Positions 288 to 4,388 of a stretch of DNA of 20,634 nt are shown here, in pieces. The position numbers and the translations under genes were made by a program. The stretch's first letter is position 1, and the number at the start of each line of letters is the position of its first letter. The notes under the pieces were generated by a model. It saw only the letters and a program-made list of their open reading frames with translations. It was not told the DNA's origin and did no database searches. Origin of the DNA: a virus (taxonomy: Duplodnaviria; Heunggongvirae; Uroviricota; Caudoviricetes); the IMG/VR virus record IMGVR_UViG_2740892218_000001, positions 1-20,634 of that record; one strand, written 5' to 3'.

Positions 288-355
288 GTTGGTTTTTCTC
301 CACGGATTTACTGACAACCGAAGCCCTGACTGTTCCCGCAGTTGGGGCTTCAACT

Positions 356-559: not shown

Positions 560-580
560 ATAGTAGAGTGCTTCTATCAT
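560..580. promoter_or_regulatory. Arc operator (ATGATAGAAGCACTCTACTAT on the minus strand)
   Basis: Plus strand atagtagagtgcttctatcat; partially symmetric (TAGA..TCTA half-sites); matches the P22 Arc operator as recalled; lies between the divergent arc and mnt starts. Confidence 0.7.
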
Positions 581-607: not shown

Positions 608-859
608 ATGGCTAGAGATGATCCGCACTTTAACTTCCGTATGCCTATGGAAGTAAGGGAGAAATTAAAATTCAGGGCGGAGGCGAATGGGAGATCAATG
701 AACTCCGAGTTGTTACAAATCGTCCAAGATGCTCTATCAAAACCATCGCCTGTGACTGGATATCGCGACGATGCAGAACGACTCGCTGATGAGCAGTCAG
801 AGCTTGTTAAGAAGATGGTGTTTGATACGCTGAAGGATTTGTACAAAAAACCCACCTGA
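608..859 (+). CDS. mnt: Mnt repressor (ribbon-helix-helix), 83 aa
   Basis: MARDDPHFNFRMPMEVREKLKFRAEANGRSMNSELLQIVQDALSKPSPVTGYRDDAERLADEQSELVKKMVFDTLKDLYKKPT, near-identical to P22 Mnt as recalled; divergent from arc. Confidence 0.9.
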   Translation: MARDDPHFNFRMPMEVREKLKFRAEANGRSMNSELLQIVQDALSKPSPVTGYRDDAERLADEQSELVKKMVFDTLKDLYKKPT

Positions 860-869
860 AGGTGGGTTT
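845..869 (-). terminator. Stem-loop (aaacccacc / tgaa / ggtgggttt) with a U6 run on the minus-strand transcript; candidate intrinsic terminator between the convergent mnt and YafO-like genes
   Basis: Perfect 9-bp inverted repeat at 848-856 / 861-869 with a 4-nt loop; on the minus strand it is followed by TTTTTT (845-850). The mnt stop codon sits in the loop. On the plus strand no U-run follows. Confidence 0.45.
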
Positions 870-1317
870 AGTCAAACATAGTGTTTCTAAAGTCTCTCGC
901 ATACCCTGCCAACACTCTCATTCTATTATGATTGTTAGCAGACATGTGAGCTACAGGATGAAAAAGAGCAATCAATGAATACCTGTTCTCATCAAAAAGA
1001 TTTTGTGCATAAACGAGAGCGGTATTGGAAGTTTTATGCCACTGCAACTTTTGCGGTGTGCTGATATCTGTGCCTTTTTTTATTGGCTCAAATTTATTTT
1101 CACCAATTGCTAAATGAAGGTGCATAAGGCCTGCATCTTCAATATCAGGAGGTCGATGATAAGAGGTGTCTCTGCCAAAATAGCTGGGCAACGTTCCCGT
1201 AGACTTGTAGATGATAAAATCATCTACAAGTGTTTGTTTTAAATCAGGAAACTCAACAAAAACCGGGGAGAAAAAATAGTCAAAACTATCCTGATTATAT
1301 TCCACGGTTACTTGCAT
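868..1317 (-). CDS. YafO-family toxin homolog (type II TA toxin family; ribosome-dependent mRNA interferase in E. coli YafO), 149 aa
   Basis: Translation carries the motifs DFIIYKSTGTLPSYFGRD, HLHLA, LVYAQNLFDE...LIALFHP...NNHNRMR, which align with E. coli YafO (DFISYKRDGVLPDIFGRD, HIHLA, LVYCQGAFDE...LIAILKP...DNNQMHK) as recalled from memory. GAGG RBS 5 nt upstream of ATG; AT-rich relative to the structural genes. Confidence 0.65.
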   Translation of the reverse strand: MQVTVEYNQDSFDYFFSPVFVEFPDLKQTLVDDFIIYKSTGTLPSYFGRDTSYHRPPDIEDAGLMHLHLAIGENKFEPIKKGTDISTPQKLQWHKTSNTALVYAQNLFDENRYSLIALFHPVAHMSANNHNRMRVLAGYARDFRNTMFD

Positions 1318-1325
1318 GTTTTACC

Positions 1326-1892
1326 TCAGTGGAAGTTACCAGAGTGAAACACACGAGTCCCGTGCTCAGCAAGCGCACGCAAACCAGCCATATCTACGGA
1401 ACTATCAAAAACAACCGGAACACATGAGCGTTGTTTAATAAGACTATTCAGGTTAGTTACGGCAGATCTAGCATCAGCAACAACGATATAGATATCTCTT
1501 GCGATCTCTTTAAAATCAGCAGAAGCTTCTTTGAATACCGATTTCATTGCCCCTTCAAGTCCTCTCAATTGATGCTCTATCAATCGAGATTTTTCTGGTT
1601 CAATGATAGACAACACATTGTCTACATTTTCATCGGTAGCGTTTGCAAGAACACGATAAGCATATTTCAGCATTCGAGACAATTCTTTAATCGAAGACAC
1701 CGCCTCATGAAGCTCATCATTGGTCCGTTCACTGCTGAGCGAGGATTGATGGTAAGCGTGCTGAACATTATCAGTGACAACCACCTCACAACTGAACGCA
1801 GAAGCTTGCTGTAATAGCAAACCTATTGCGACCCCAGCTTTGGCAGTGTTCAAGCTAAACATTTCATCAATCCCATTAGTCTCATTGCTCAT
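1326..1892 (-). CDS. Hypothetical 188-aa protein, upstream partner of the YafO-like toxin; no family recognised
   Basis: ATG at 1892 (MSNETNGIDEMF...) preceded by AAGGAGG with a 5-nt spacer; the track's TTG start at 1922 would include that RBS. Its TGA stop lies inside the RBS of the downstream toxin gene (8-nt gap), indicating translational coupling. Contains an R-x4-H motif (RALAEH) near the C-terminus. Confidence 0.6.
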   Translation of the reverse strand: MSNETNGIDEMFSLNTAKAGVAIGLLLQQASAFSCEVVVTDNVQHAYHQSSLSSERTNDELHEAVSSIKELSRMLKYAYRVLANATDENVDNVLSIIEPEKSRLIEHQLRGLEGAMKSVFKEASADFKEIARDIYIVVADARSAVTNLNSLIKQRSCVPVVFDSSVDMAGLRALAEHGTRVFHSGNFH

Positions 1893-1918
1893 ACAAACCT
1901 CCTTCTTATCGGAGATTA

Positions 1919-1959
1919 TCAATAGCTATGCATCTATTGAATACACGCTATGCTCAATA
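1919..1959. promoter_or_regulatory. Candidate operator: TCAATAG-N8-CTATTGA inverted repeat centred on ATGCAT, plus a third TCAATA half-site and a GCTATGC direct repeat
   Basis: Read directly: tcaatag (1919-1925) / ctattga (1934-1940), tcaata (1954-1959), gctatgc at 1925-1931 and 1947-1953; sits 27-67 bp upstream of the 188-aa gene start in the divergent intergenic region. Confidence 0.3.
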
Positions 1960-2063
1960 ATTCTACGTCACGTGATATCATTATGCAACCATCGTTCTAT
2001 CACCAGTAGATGATGCCTCTCCATACATCATCTGGTATCCTGCACAAAACTAAGGAGGTTGGT

Positions 2064-2453
2064 GTGAAGCGATTTCTTGCTGCTATGTTCTTATTCATAT
2101 CTTTTGGGGCTACAGCAGAGTGCTGGGTCGTTGGAGATATGCGCGGAATAAGCTATTCAGAACGCAATAATTTCCATCCGGTAGAAGATGGTTTTAGTGG
2201 AACATTCACCATTAAGACAAGCGGTGAAGATGCCAGCATCACATATTCTGGTACAGATGCGGGCGGCATGGCTTACAAAGCATTGTCTAAAAACTCCATC
2301 ATAGGAATCGGCGCGAATGGCGAAACTCAACGCGTTATCGACTCATGGGTAATACATCCTACTGGAACAGTTTTAATGTCAAAAACCATTTCCGGTTATG
2401 GAAATATGGATTCAACCAAAGCTTTTGTTGGAAAAGTAAAAAGAAAATGTTAG
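2064..2453 (+). CDS. Small secreted protein of unknown function (about 129 aa, N-terminal signal peptide), divergent from the toxin operon
   Basis: AGGAGG at 2053-2058 then GTG at 2064; VKRFLAAMFLFISFGATAEC looks like a Sec signal peptide (basic n-region, hydrophobic core, ATA-E cleavage context); mature part is Gly/Ser/Thr-rich with Cys near both ends. The upstream part of track ORF 2010..2453 overlaps the RBS. Confidence 0.55.
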   Translation: MKRFLAAMFLFISFGATAECWVVGDMRGISYSERNNFHPVEDGFSGTFTIKTSGEDASITYSGTDAGGMAYKALSKNSIIGIGANGETQRVIDSWVIHPTGTVLMSKTISGYGNMDSTKAFVGKVKRKC

Positions 2454-2477: not shown

Positions 2478-4388
2478 TTACTGCTGTGTTGCCTCAGTAG
2501 CAAACAGCGGCCTGACGGCATTTGCAGCGTTACTTAACGCTCTTTCATAGGCTGGTGTTCCAGCTTTAGTGTTTGCCAGACGTAAGAGCGCATTCCTTGC
2601 TGCTTTGGACTCGTACAAGCGCATGATTGCACCGAAACCAGCCTCAAGTCCCAGTGATACACCAAGGGTTGCAGTTGCGCCAATCGTTCTAATCCTGTTA
2701 GCTTGCGATTGTCCTGTCTGTGTTACTACATTTGCGGCGTCCGACCTTGCTGTTTGCTGTAGAACTTCATGAAGAGCATCAAGCTCTTTCATGTGTCTCC
2801 CACTGAATATAGTGTTATAGATCTGACCGTCAGATTGCGACTTCAACTTATTTAACTCGGTAAGAAATTTTGTTGGCGAGTCTCCTGCTTTTTCTGCAAT
2901 CTTGCTGATATAAGCAGCACGCATAGCGTTCTTTCCATCTTCACTAAGAGCAGGCCATATCCTCTTAATATCTGATGGTTTTCTGCTGAATACAACGCTG
3001 TTTATTAGCTCTGGAGTAAACTCTTTTTTAGCTTTGTTGAGATTATTCGCAATCCTTTTATTGAGAACTTTATTGAAGACGTTGGAGTAGTCAGAGTTTG
3101 CTTTGACGTATCTGGCGGCCTCTCCAGCCCCCAAATACCGCGCTGCGTTATTCCTCAAATCTGCCCCCATTGCCCTCTCCACGGCATCAGTTGCGGCTTT
3201 CGCGCTATTAGGAAAAACCATGGCATCTCCCTGAATACTTTCCCTCAAGGCTGACCGCAACTCTCTCAATAGACCAAAATCTATATCTGGTTTAGCAAGT
3301 TCTTCTCGCAAATCGGATAACCCGCGAATCAAATCCTTATTTGCCACTTTCCCAAGCCTGTTAGCTCTGGTAAGTACGTTGTCGATAACCTTAATAGATT
3401 TTGATGTGTCAACAGGTGTGTCTCCCATTTTGGTTGTAATGTCTTCAATAACGCTTCCGGCCGAATCCTTCCTTGACTTCAGAGAACCATACAGATCGTC
3501 AACAACAACTGATGGGCTATATTCACCATATTTCTCAAGCTGTTTTTTAACTAGCTGACTTCTTTTTGCATATTGCTCAGCTCGCTTTGAGCCTGTTCCC
3601 AGCAAAGCCCCCTCAGCATCCTGAGTAAGACCACGAGTGAAAGCATTTTTCGGCGGGATTACATCAGATGTCATTGGTGTCACGCCCATCGATTCTGATG
3701 TGGCAATTTTCTTCGCCACTTCTGGTGCAATATCACCTTTAAAGGCAGTTATTCCACGCTCAAGCCCTTTTGCAACAGTATTAACAGCACCACCTGTTAG
3801 CATGCCAACACCTATATCTGTTGCCAGTTTTCCCGCATCATTTTTCTCACTGTTTGCGGCGAGCGATCCGACTGCGTTTTCTGCCAGAAGACGGGCTGCG
3901 CCTTGAGTAATTCGACCAGCAAGTGTTGGCGCCTGAGTTGAAGCGCCGCCAACGCCAACAGTAGTCAGGTAAGGCAATGCCTCCGCAAACACCCTACCTT
4001 CTGTCGTTTGTGGAGTCAGAGCACCTTGCTGAAGTCCAAACGCCTGCTCTAATCCCTGAGTTGTTACTCGTGGCGCTGGTTGATATGTTCCATCGCCAAT
4101 ACCGAGTTTACCGCCAGCCCATGCCGCCGCGCTTGTTACAGCATCGGCAACTGATGCTGGTATATTTGCCACATTTACACCAGCCTGCACCAGTCCGCGA
4201 CCAGTTTCTTTTACTGCTTCGCCGAGGTCAGACATAAATCCATCTTGCTGTTCTACAGGCTGCTTTTGGTTTTGAGTTGGTTGATTACTGGAGGACAGAA
4301 TCTGAGCGATGCGACGTGCTCCCTCAGTATCACCAGCAGCATCAGCATTCCTTAACGCCGTCATCAATTGTTCACGACTATAAGCCAT
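2478..4388 (-). CDS. Ejection (internal) protein, P22 gp16-like, 636 aa
   Basis: Position (last of the 4-10-26-14-7-20-16 block), size, and TAATG stop/start overlap with the upstream gp20-like gene; Ala/Gly-rich composition typical of ejection proteins. Confidence 0.75.
   Translation of the reverse strand: MAYSREQLMTALRNADAAGDTEGARRIAQILSSSNQPTQNQKQPVEQQDGFMSDLGEAVKETGRGLVQAGVNVANIPASVADAVTSAAAWAGGKLGIGDGTYQPAPRVTTQGLEQAFGLQQGALTPQTTEGRVFAEALPYLTTVGVGGASTQAPTLAGRITQGAARLLAENAVGSLAANSEKNDAGKLATDIGVGMLTGGAVNTVAKGLERGITAFKGDIAPEVAKKIATSESMGVTPMTSDVIPPKNAFTRGLTQDAEGALLGTGSKRAEQYAKRSQLVKKQLEKYGEYSPSVVVDDLYGSLKSRKDSAGSVIEDITTKMGDTPVDTSKSIKVIDNVLTRANRLGKVANKDLIRGLSDLREELAKPDIDFGLLRELRSALRESIQGDAMVFPNSAKAATDAVERAMGADLRNNAARYLGAGEAARYVKANSDYSNVFNKVLNKRIANNLNKAKKEFTPELINSVVFSRKPSDIKRIWPALSEDGKNAMRAAYISKIAEKAGDSPTKFLTELNKLKSQSDGQIYNTIFSGRHMKELDALHEVLQQTARSDAANVVTQTGQSQANRIRTIGATATLGVSLGLEAGFGAIMRLYESKAARNALLRLANTKAGTPAYERALSNAANAVRPLFATEATQQ

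Follow-up and report, generated by a model that had tools for sequence, protein, structure and literature searches.

The 171-bp region that separates a leftward operon for a 188-aa protein and a YafO-family toxin from a rightward gene for a secreted 129-aa protein reads best as a compact mosaic of back-to-back promoters in the sieA slot, in which the inverted repeats are lineage-specific and the operon would be controlled by its promoter and by a leader that masks the SD sequence. We put the probability of this reading at roughly 0.6. The inverted repeats, which an earlier note on this DNA had proposed as possible operators, are present but not conserved. The sequences that are conserved among relatives are promoter-like elements on both strands, an anti-SD sequence ahead of the 188-aa gene, and the junction ahead of the 129-aa gene.

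The window, by which we mean the whole stretch of 20,634 nucleotides that was analyzed, comes from a prophage or phage of the P22-like (Lederbergvirus) type, and domain matches and comparison with P22 place the part considered here in the immI/sieA region (Table 1). The region is homologous to the mnt-sieA-16 segment of P22, with the 129-aa gene at the position of sieA and the toxin cassette at the position of hkcC, on the same strand. Conserved SD sequences, together with homologues, settle both of the start codons that bound the intergenic region. The YafO-family toxin scored 79 bits against an NCBIfam equivalog cut-off of 153 and therefore lies below that cut-off, and the 188-aa protein is presumed to be its antitoxin or partner. 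The 129-aa protein resembles Sf6 gp38 and Emek orf129. PADLOC 2.0, run on three proteins, returned no defense-system match, a hit to ZorA at E = 0.007 being at chance level, and literature searches turned up no paper specific to the cassette, to its RefSeq accessions, or to YafO in P22-like phages.

Table 1. Positions of genes, sequence elements, and predicted structures in the window
Feature	Positions	Strand	Remarks
End of ant			leftmost in the window
sar RNA	300-355		Rfam RF00262, E = 2.9e-14
arc		-	Pfam Arc domain
mnt	608-859	+	Pfam Repressor_Mnt domain
YafO-family toxin gene, 149 aa	868-1317	-	PF13957, E = 3e-22
188-aa protein gene, first in toxin operon	1326-1892	-	phrog_8416
Whole intergenic region, 171 bp	1893-2063		between ATG 1892 (-) and GTG 2064 (+)
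Predicted 5' leader of operon mRNA, about 60 nt (61-64)	1893-1953	-	start assumed from -10 hexamer
Hairpin B (predicted)	1896-1917	-	anti-SD AAUCUCC (1917-1911) with SD GGAGGUU (1902-1896)
IR1, TCAATAG-N8-CTATTGA	arms 1919-1925 / 1934-1940		perfect, 8 nt between arms
Hairpin A (predicted)	1922-1951	-	12 pairs including 3 G-U, AUAGC/GCUAU base
GCTATGC direct repeats	1925-1931 and 1947-1953		22 bp apart
Third half-site TCAATA	1954-1959		between -10 and predicted start of P(-)
Candidate -10 TAGAAT of P(-)	1960-1965	-	17-nt spacer; PWM score 10.2
Alternative extended -10 TGATATCAT	1973-1981	+	overlaps P(-) spacer; PWM score 6.2
Candidate -35 TTGCAT of P(-), 188-aa/YafO operon	1983-1988	-	TTGC invariant in 7 lineages
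Invariant block directly upstream of P(-) -35	1990-2004	-	reads GGTGATAGAACGATGG; invariant alignment columns
IR2, AGATGATG-N10-CATCATCT	arms 2008-2015 / 2026-2033		perfect, 10 nt between arms
Candidate extended -10 TGG TATCCT of P(+)	2033-2041	+	TGn, A2 (A2037), and T6 (T2041) kept in 7/7 lineages
Junction TGGTATCCTGCACAAAACTAAGGAGGTTGGTGTG	2033-2066	+	extended -10 TGG TATCCT, short leader, SD AAGGAGG (2052-2058), GTG (2064-2066)
129-aa protein gene	2064-2453	+	phrog_2651; GTG start, signal-peptide-like N terminus
Ejection-protein gene 16	2478-4388	-	

The family of the 188-aa protein is small: out of 1.84 billion clustered proteins, 17 cluster representatives matched at E <= 0.001. We compared cassettes whose 188-aa proteins are 98, 78, 66, 63, and 54% identical to that of the window, together with IMG/VR contigs, and added a set of 55 complete E. 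coli genomes in which the cassette DNA is about 97% identical; E. coli ATCC 11775 has a copy of this 97% kind. The cassettes of the comparison set all lie between gene 16 and mnt in P22-like prophages. The slot is the same in seven diverged cassette lineages, and at least six unrelated small genes, one of them with a Rap1a domain, were found in it as plus-strand cargo. A distant branch of the 188-aa family (35-44% identity) is a moron between the tape-measure and minor-tail genes of HK639-type phages, and is present also in other Enterobacterales prophages.

A direct check of the sequence located every one of the repeats that had been listed earlier. IR1 had been described as centered on an ATGCAT; that palindrome is indeed there (1928-1933), but it sits 1 bp off the dyad axis at 1929.5. 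The frequency expected by chance was then estimated from 5000 dinucleotide-preserving shuffles of the 171 bp, with loops of up to 20 nt allowed. At least one perfect 7-bp inverted repeat arose in 18.6% of the shuffles, at least one of 8 bp in 5.4%, and at least two separate inverted repeats in 1.6%. Real 171-bp segments of the 20.6-kb sequence held at least one inverted repeat in 24% of cases and at least two in 2.5%. Judged by these frequencies, IR1 and IR2 are each unremarkable taken singly, and the pair is mildly unusual. A longer inverted repeat that had not been listed (1889-1904 / 2052-2067, 16 nt, 88% complementary) amounts to nothing more than the divergent ribosome-binding sites, which are nearly identical to each other, and the start codons that go with them. 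Two 8-bp palindromes in the spacer of the leftward promoter candidate, TCACGTGA (1968-1975) and TGATATCA (1973-1980), occur at about chance frequency and are not conserved, and they were set aside.

The designation of the region as a divergent promoter region was supported: each strand has promoter-like elements, and the critical positions of these do not vary among the seven diverged cassette lineages. Conservation among lineages was called from one alignment (A3), and promoters were ranked with a simple sigma-70 PWM. The top minus-strand candidate, both in the window and in six of the seven lineages, is TTGCAT-17-TAGAAT, which we refer to as P(-). The -35 hexamer matches the consensus at three of six positions, which leaves it below the threshold of a stock consensus scan. 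In relatives the -10 hexamer reads TAAACT, TAGACT, or TACACT, so that positions 1, 2, 4, and 6 are invariant and positions 3 and 5 vary. In one lineage, L011, an overlapping TTGACA-16-TATTAT scores higher than P(-), and it would shift the start of the transcript downstream by about 6 nt, into the 5' arm of hairpin A. We infer from these sequence features that TTGCAT-17-TAGAAT is the sigma-70 promoter of the toxin operon and that transcription starts near 1953.

In the block directly upstream of the -35 hexamer, GGTGATAGAAC (2004-1994, minus strand) is conserved. Further conserved blocks on the minus strand are CATAGCGT (1952-1945), GCT.T (1926-1922), AATCTCCG (1917-1910), GGAGGTT, and ATG. Inspection of positions 1893-2063 by eye gave no convincing match to a LexA box, to CRP or IHF sites, or to the Mnt operator. 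The upstream block includes TGATAGAA, the same 8-mer that is present in the Arc operator at 572-579, but the second half of such an operator is missing or wrongly oriented, and we regard the half-site as a coincidence. A 16-codon ORF on the minus strand (ATGATG..., 2032 to 1982), considered as a reason for the invariance of the block, is present in the window, L015, and L011, but L013, L016, and the E. coli copies either lack it or do not keep its frame, and it was dismissed as spurious.

The promoter of canonical E. coli yafNO is autoregulated by the DNA-binding antitoxin YafN and bears inverted repeats (Christensen-Dalsgaard et al. 2010, PMC2814082), and the earlier note, on the grounds that type II antitoxins commonly autoregulate through palindromic operators, had offered IR1 as a possible binding site of the 188-aa protein or complex. 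Classical type II autoregulation would here make IR1 and the third TCAATA an operator for the 188-aa protein or for the toxin-antitoxin complex. The two loci are indeed alike in having a YafO-family toxin gene after a smaller gene, which is the usual type II layout, and in having their own promoter, a predicted one here, with inverted repeats near the start. The three half-sites, including those of the perfect 7-bp dyad, fall between the discriminator region and about +35, close to where transcription is predicted to start, and there is precedent for operators that overlap or follow the start site.

Comparison of the cassettes might have borne out such an operator but runs against it. Perfect IR1 occurs only in the window. 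The sequence is TCAATGG (mRNA sense) in each of the 55 E. coli copies and in those from IMG/VR, a change that breaks the DNA palindrome in one arm yet still allows G-U pairing in RNA. The repeat owes its perfect form in the window alone to one base, A1935 on the plus strand, where every close relative has G (mRNA sense). The third half-site is altered in the close copies as well, from TATTGA to TACTGC or TATTGC on the minus strand. In L015, whose 188-aa protein is 78% identical, IR1 has two mismatches; the repeat is absent from cassettes with 188-aa proteins 54-78% identical, and unrelated sequence stands in its place in the lineages at 66-54%. We found no replacement dyad of at least 7 bp at this site in the homologous cassettes. 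Perfect Watson-Crick inverted repeats in the leader region reach 7 bp in the window and no more than 6 bp in the other eight leaders, and the leader region of L015 has none of at least 4 bp. Moreover, IR1 would be transcribed from the best promoter candidate, at about +14 to +35, and so would lie downstream of it; an inverted repeat of its length is found in 19% of the shuffles.

The 188-aa protein itself also differs from the antitoxins known to act in this way. It has no Pfam or NCBIfam match, and its AF2/AlphaFold model (pLDDT 77) is an all-helical bundle whose structural matches are generic helical proteins only. No DNA-binding domain of the RHH, HTH, AbrB/SpoVT, or Phd/YefM type was detected through Pfam, NCBIfam, or the structural matches of the model. 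In place of a Phd/YefM-type YafN, the operon thus encodes a helical protein of a rare family; an earlier survey had found the YafO superfamily paired with Phd-type antitoxins and had not seen phage members (PMC3141249). A helical protein of this kind could bind DNA through a motif that is not recognizable, and an operator restricted to this lineage would be compatible with the comparative data. With a perfect dyad confined to the window, a predicted position downstream of the promoter candidate, and no DNA-binding domain found, we consider IR1 very unlikely to be an operator of the 188-aa protein or its complex. The locus departs from yafNO also in that no LexA box was seen by eye, in that its inverted repeats are not conserved, and in that the features that are conserved lie in the predicted leader.

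The predicted leader folds with an MFE of -17.9 kcal/mol (z = -2.98), a value equaled by none of 200 shuffles, and its MFE structure consists of hairpins A and B and not of IR1. Hairpin A, whose first base is 2 nt from the 5' end predicted for the transcript, has its 5' arm at 1951-1940, its loop at 1939-1935, and its 3' arm at 1934-1922. IR1 covers the upper part of the 5' arm along with the loop and the first base of the 3' arm, and further takes in the 3' base of hairpin A and three bases beyond it. As an RNA hairpin IR1 has a predicted energy of -5.2 to -6.0 kcal/mol (z = -1.0 to -1.6) and competes with hairpin A, at -9.5 kcal/mol. The idea of a 5' UTR hairpin, which the earlier note had attached to IR2, suits the region of IR1 better than that of IR2, although the conserved hairpin there is not IR1.

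The two-hairpin architecture is predicted in all nine distinct leaders, and hairpin A is the MFE structure in eight of them, with modest z-scores of -1.4 to -3.1. Variants within the close clade (G23A, C24U, and A19G) keep or extend the pairing of the leader. In a sequence-only MAFFT alignment, 92.8% of the cells of the complete leader structure pair, versus 33-48% when the partners are slid, and 88.5% of the cells of the hairpin A helix pair. In the MAFFT alignment of the nine leaders, no pair of hairpin A or B is changed on both sides, and shuffles attain the score observed for hairpin A in 178 of 500 cases, which is not significant. Apparent compensatory changes in L013 and L016 (G-C to A-U and U-A to C-G) depend on a hand-chosen, structure-guided register, and the covariation support for hairpin A is weak. 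The sense strand is predicted to be more stable than the antisense strand in seven of the nine leaders, the antisense strand folding better in L016, and this asymmetry fits RNA structure rather than a DNA palindrome. An Rfam 15 scan of positions 300-2600 gave no match at E <= 1 within 1893-2063. Elsewhere in the scanned interval it returned sar and weak, terminator-like matches to sroH.

The base of hairpin A could alternatively be read as DNA. The conserved dyad ATAGC...GCTAT (1951-1947 / 1926-1922) and the CATAGCGT that is invariant at the start site would then jointly be an operator for the cassette proteins, and its conservation would reflect protein binding and not RNA pairing. Both arms are invariant in all nine leaders while the interior varies, an invariance that exceeds what pairing alone needs, and the dyad overlaps the predicted start site, a typical position for a repressor site. 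The distance between the arms, however, ranges from 15 to 21 nt among lineages, which is hard to square with a fixed dimer, and the pairing of the interior is kept through G-U pairs that are meaningless in DNA. The better folding of the sense strand in most lineages also counts against a DNA site, as does the lack of a detectable DNA-binding domain, and distant homologues are without the dyad while their leaders are still structured. We therefore judge a DNA operator at this dyad to be unlikely.

Hairpin B, in which the SD sequence of the 188-aa gene is predicted to pair with an anti-SD sequence, has seven pairs and an 8-nt loop (-8.0 kcal/mol, z about -3) and is the local MFE structure. All seven pairs are invariant in the nine leaders, so that the predicted pairing is conserved with no covariation possible. 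When the start-site hairpins of 23 genes of the window are ranked by stability, it comes second, and similar SD-masking hairpins occur at three or four of the 23. The arrangement resembles that of SD-sequestering 5' UTR hairpins, such as those of RNA thermometers and of many phage genes, in that an anti-SD sequence 8 nt upstream forms a predicted local hairpin of about -8 kcal/mol and in that the hairpin is conserved across the whole 188-aa protein family. It differs from them in that its pairs never vary and that comparable hairpins are found at a few other genes of the phage. Stem-loops of the ompA type at the 5' end stabilize bacterial mRNAs, and hairpin A is similarly placed, 2 nt from a 5' end that is here predicted from the sequence.

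The distant HK639-type branch lends the structured leader independent support. Its leaders are about 88 nt long and cannot be aligned with those of the P22 type. An anti-SD hairpin of the form CUCC(U)...(A)GGAG is predicted in 12 such leaders. A second, strong hairpin in these leaders shows compensatory changes at five pairs and in many cases has a U run after it; one passes a terminator scan. When the SD regions of both groups were placed in one alignment, the registers differed and no single shared structure emerged. A search of metagenome and viral contigs with the pattern CATAGCGT-N18-45-AATCTCCG gave nearly all chance matches, and no new leader variant was found after filtering. From these predicted structures we infer that the leader folds in vivo and that the folding has a regulatory effect on the operon.

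The right end of the intergenic region has a different distribution from the cassette. The 34-bp junction is identical, GTG included, to the sequence upstream of P22 sieA, and it is found also upstream of HK620 hkcB and Emek orf129. It is present in 227 complete E. coli genomes, versus 55 with the cassette, and in 73 phage records, in both sets beside different genes. In P22 and HK620 nothing but the junction separates the divergent start codons of hkcC and sieA/hkcB, which are 30 bp apart. Set beside the region of the putative P22 promoter PsieA and the hkcC-sieA (HK620 hkcC-hkcB) joint, the locus has the 34 bp of P22 sieA in the same place between gene 16 and mnt. Unlike P22, the cargo here is a gene for an Sf6-gp38-like secreted protein and not sieA, and the divergent neighbor is the 188-aa/YafO cassette with its own 140 bp of putative promoter and leader, whereas hkcC abuts the joint there.

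Within the junction, TGG TATCCT is the top plus-strand PWM candidate of the intergenic region, and it ranks first also in the 85-bp fragment of P22; the 85 bp upstream of sieA have been reported to suffice for single-copy expression in P22 (PMC10883804). Its key bases are retained even in the diverged L013, as TGC TACAGT. We propose on this basis that TGG TATCCT would act as an extended -10 promoter, P(+), for the 129-aa gene. The alternative extended -10 lies further upstream, and the TGnTATCAT at that position is found in the window clade, L015, and L016 and not in L011 or L013, that is, in three of five lineage groups. P22 records place PsieA just upstream of the joint, whereas the PWM scoring favors the extended -10 inside it, which suggests that PsieA may be annotated about 30 bp away from its true place.

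Mosaic joints of lambdoid phages can have conserved boundary or linker sequences, which have been described for HK620 and related phages. The junction is like them in being a short conserved stretch between exchangeable gene modules, and it differs in that it would also have a plausible function in expression, containing a -10 element, an SD sequence, and a start codon.

IR2 lies across this boundary. Its left arm is in a hypervariable spacer (about 2005-2026), and its right arm abuts the conserved junction. The right arm is a semi-conserved CATCAT that in P22 and HK620 belongs to the start-codon region of the divergent hkcC; because of this identity, we take IR2 to straddle a mosaic joint, one arm being near-universal sequence and the other part of a lineage-specific spacer. 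The earlier note had proposed IR2 as an operator or a UTR hairpin. If IR2 has a function in this lineage, one option is an operator covering the -35/spacer of the plus-strand promoter; the other is a hairpin at the 5' end of the secreted-protein mRNA, which would require transcription to start upstream, as from the alternative extended -10. Relative to the junction promoter, IR2 lies at about -41 to -16. The repeat is a perfect 8-bp one, of a kind seen in only 5% of shuffles, and it folds stably as RNA on either strand, at -11.2 kcal/mol on the plus strand (z = -2.4) and -13.5 kcal/mol on the minus strand (z = -2.0). It was seen, however, only in the window and in a single contig from IMG/VR (L026). 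The 55 E. coli copies all have an intergenic region with 90.3% identity, versus 97% for the cassette, and in place of the left-arm patch they have unrelated sequence of greater length, for which no structure is predicted (-0.2 kcal/mol, z = +1.6). The spacer varies from 29 to 39 nt across lineages, and the right arm is already accounted for by the CATCAT beside the junction. A role for IR2 as operator or hairpin is thus highly doubtful, its left arm being hypervariable and copies of the cassette that are otherwise 97% identical differing there and failing to fold.

We return to the reading of the region as ordinary back-to-back promoters in a mosaic slot. The left two-thirds (1893-2004) travel with the 188-aa/YafO cassette and would provide it with its own leftward sigma-70 promoter and a leader of about 60 nt. 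Transcription of the operon in the lysogen would be constitutive or weakly regulated, and the structure of the leader would set the stability of the mRNA and limit translation of the first gene. We favor this combination because the predicted promoter is the cassette's own, the leader is predicted to fold, and the IR1 dyad is confined to the window. During lytic growth the operon would probably also be read through from the late operon. The right end (2033-2066) would constitute a portable joint, supplying an extended -10, a leader of about 15 nt, an SD sequence, and a GTG to any cargo gene at the sieA position, the current cargo being the gene for the secreted 129-aa protein.

A broader and distinctly tentative proposal, which we think has less chance of being right than of being wrong, is that the 188-aa/YafO module of both P22-type and HK639-type prophages is controlled mainly at the level of RNA by a structured leader, and not by operator autoregulation, with the 188-aa protein as a new kind of YafO neutralizer. 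The P22-type leader would then combine a 5' hairpin with an SD-masking hairpin, and the HK639-type leader a terminator-like hairpin with an SD-masking one. Such a leader could set or switch the ratio of antitoxin to toxin, for example upon superinfection or during read-through from the late operon.

As originally flagged, the finding adds little, being one of divergent promoters in a well-known variable slot of P22-like phages. The comparative data nevertheless speak against a classical operator and toward a structured leader common to an uncharacterized, prophage-borne, YafO-associated gene pair. In addition, the portable 34-bp joint seems to express whatever cargo sits at the sieA position, and if this is true, genes for lysogenic conversion could be swapped freely in these phages because the joint would express any of them.

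The partner of the YafO-family toxin was found to be a rare, all-helical protein of 188 amino acids, rather than an antitoxin of the Phd/YafN type. The two genes together were found in prophages only, at the P22-type sieA slot, between gene 16 and mnt, and in the HK639-type tail-gene region. No PADLOC defence model matched this module. The pair may constitute an uncharacterised system of the toxin-antitoxin or abortive-infection type.

Examination of the DNA 5' of the module in the HK639-type copies revealed three elements common to them. The first, TTGCTC-N15-TGGTATTAA, resembles a promoter; the second is a leader, approximately 88 nt long, in which a GC-rich hairpin with a covarying stem is followed by a U run, in the manner of a terminator; the third is an anti-SD hairpin. 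This upstream region could serve as an attenuator or encode a short leader RNA. At the other end of the operon in the window, the hairpin AAAAAACCCACCTGAAGGTGGGTTT overlaps the final mnt codons and is followed on the minus strand by TTTTTT, and thus looks like a bidirectional terminator that would also end the toxin operon. A weak Rfam match at this hairpin was to sroH and terminator-like, and a clear one was obtained for sar, the antisense RNA of the immI region of P22.

The translation-initiation regions of the two divergent genes are nearly the same (AAGGAGGTTTGTATGA versus AAGGAGGTTGGTGTGA), and the intergenic region is flanked on both sides by the arms of a long-range inverted repeat (16 nt, 88% complementary). 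Upstream of the operon -35 lies an invariant block that includes TGATAGAA, the same 8-mer as is present in the Arc operator; the window holds four copies of this 8-mer, where chance alone would give 0.67. In the operon promoter, the spacer that separates the -35 from the -10 contains two overlapping perfect 8-bp palindromes, TCACGTGA and TGATATCA, which are not conserved and occur at about the frequency chance predicts. A 16-codon ORF (ATGATGTATGGA...TAA), starting at a relic start-codon position adjoining the joint, is present in three lineages and was judged spurious, since it is absent or out of frame elsewhere.

Coordinates of the features discussed. L005, L007, L009 and L029-L041 are HK639-type module copies; L001 (P22-pbi) and L282 are P22 records.
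Feature	Record	Position	Strand	Rfam match
sar antisense RNA	window	300-355	+	71 bits, E = 2.9e-14
Arc operator 8-mer	window	572-579
mnt-end hairpin	window	846-875
YafO-family toxin gene	window	868-1317	-
188-aa gene	window	1326-1892	-
Inverted repeat	window	1889-1904 / 2052-2067
Palindromes	window	1968-1980
16-codon ORF	window	1982-2032	-
Invariant block	window	1990-2004
Module	L005	2450-3468
Module upstream features	L005	2330-2450
Module upstream features	L030	1373-1404
Module upstream features	L007, L009, L029-L041	upstream of match
PsieA and joint region	L001	2388-2451
PsieA and joint region	L282
Small gene after joint	L015	1918-2265
Small gene after joint	L011	1926-2819
Small gene after joint	L012	2399-2821
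Small gene after joint	L013	2240-2829
Small gene after joint	L016	2518-2841
Small gene after joint	L017	3197-3526

PsieA is annotated in the P22 records just upstream of the conserved joint. When the functional 85-bp P22 fragment was scored with a simple weight matrix, the extended -10 TGG TATCCT within the joint was preferred over the annotated promoter, and by this scoring the annotation may be off by about 30 bp. At least six unrelated small genes, one encoding a Rap1a (T6SS-immunity-like) domain, were found after the same 34-bp joint and beside the same toxin cassette. The sieA slot behaves as a cargo-exchange site.
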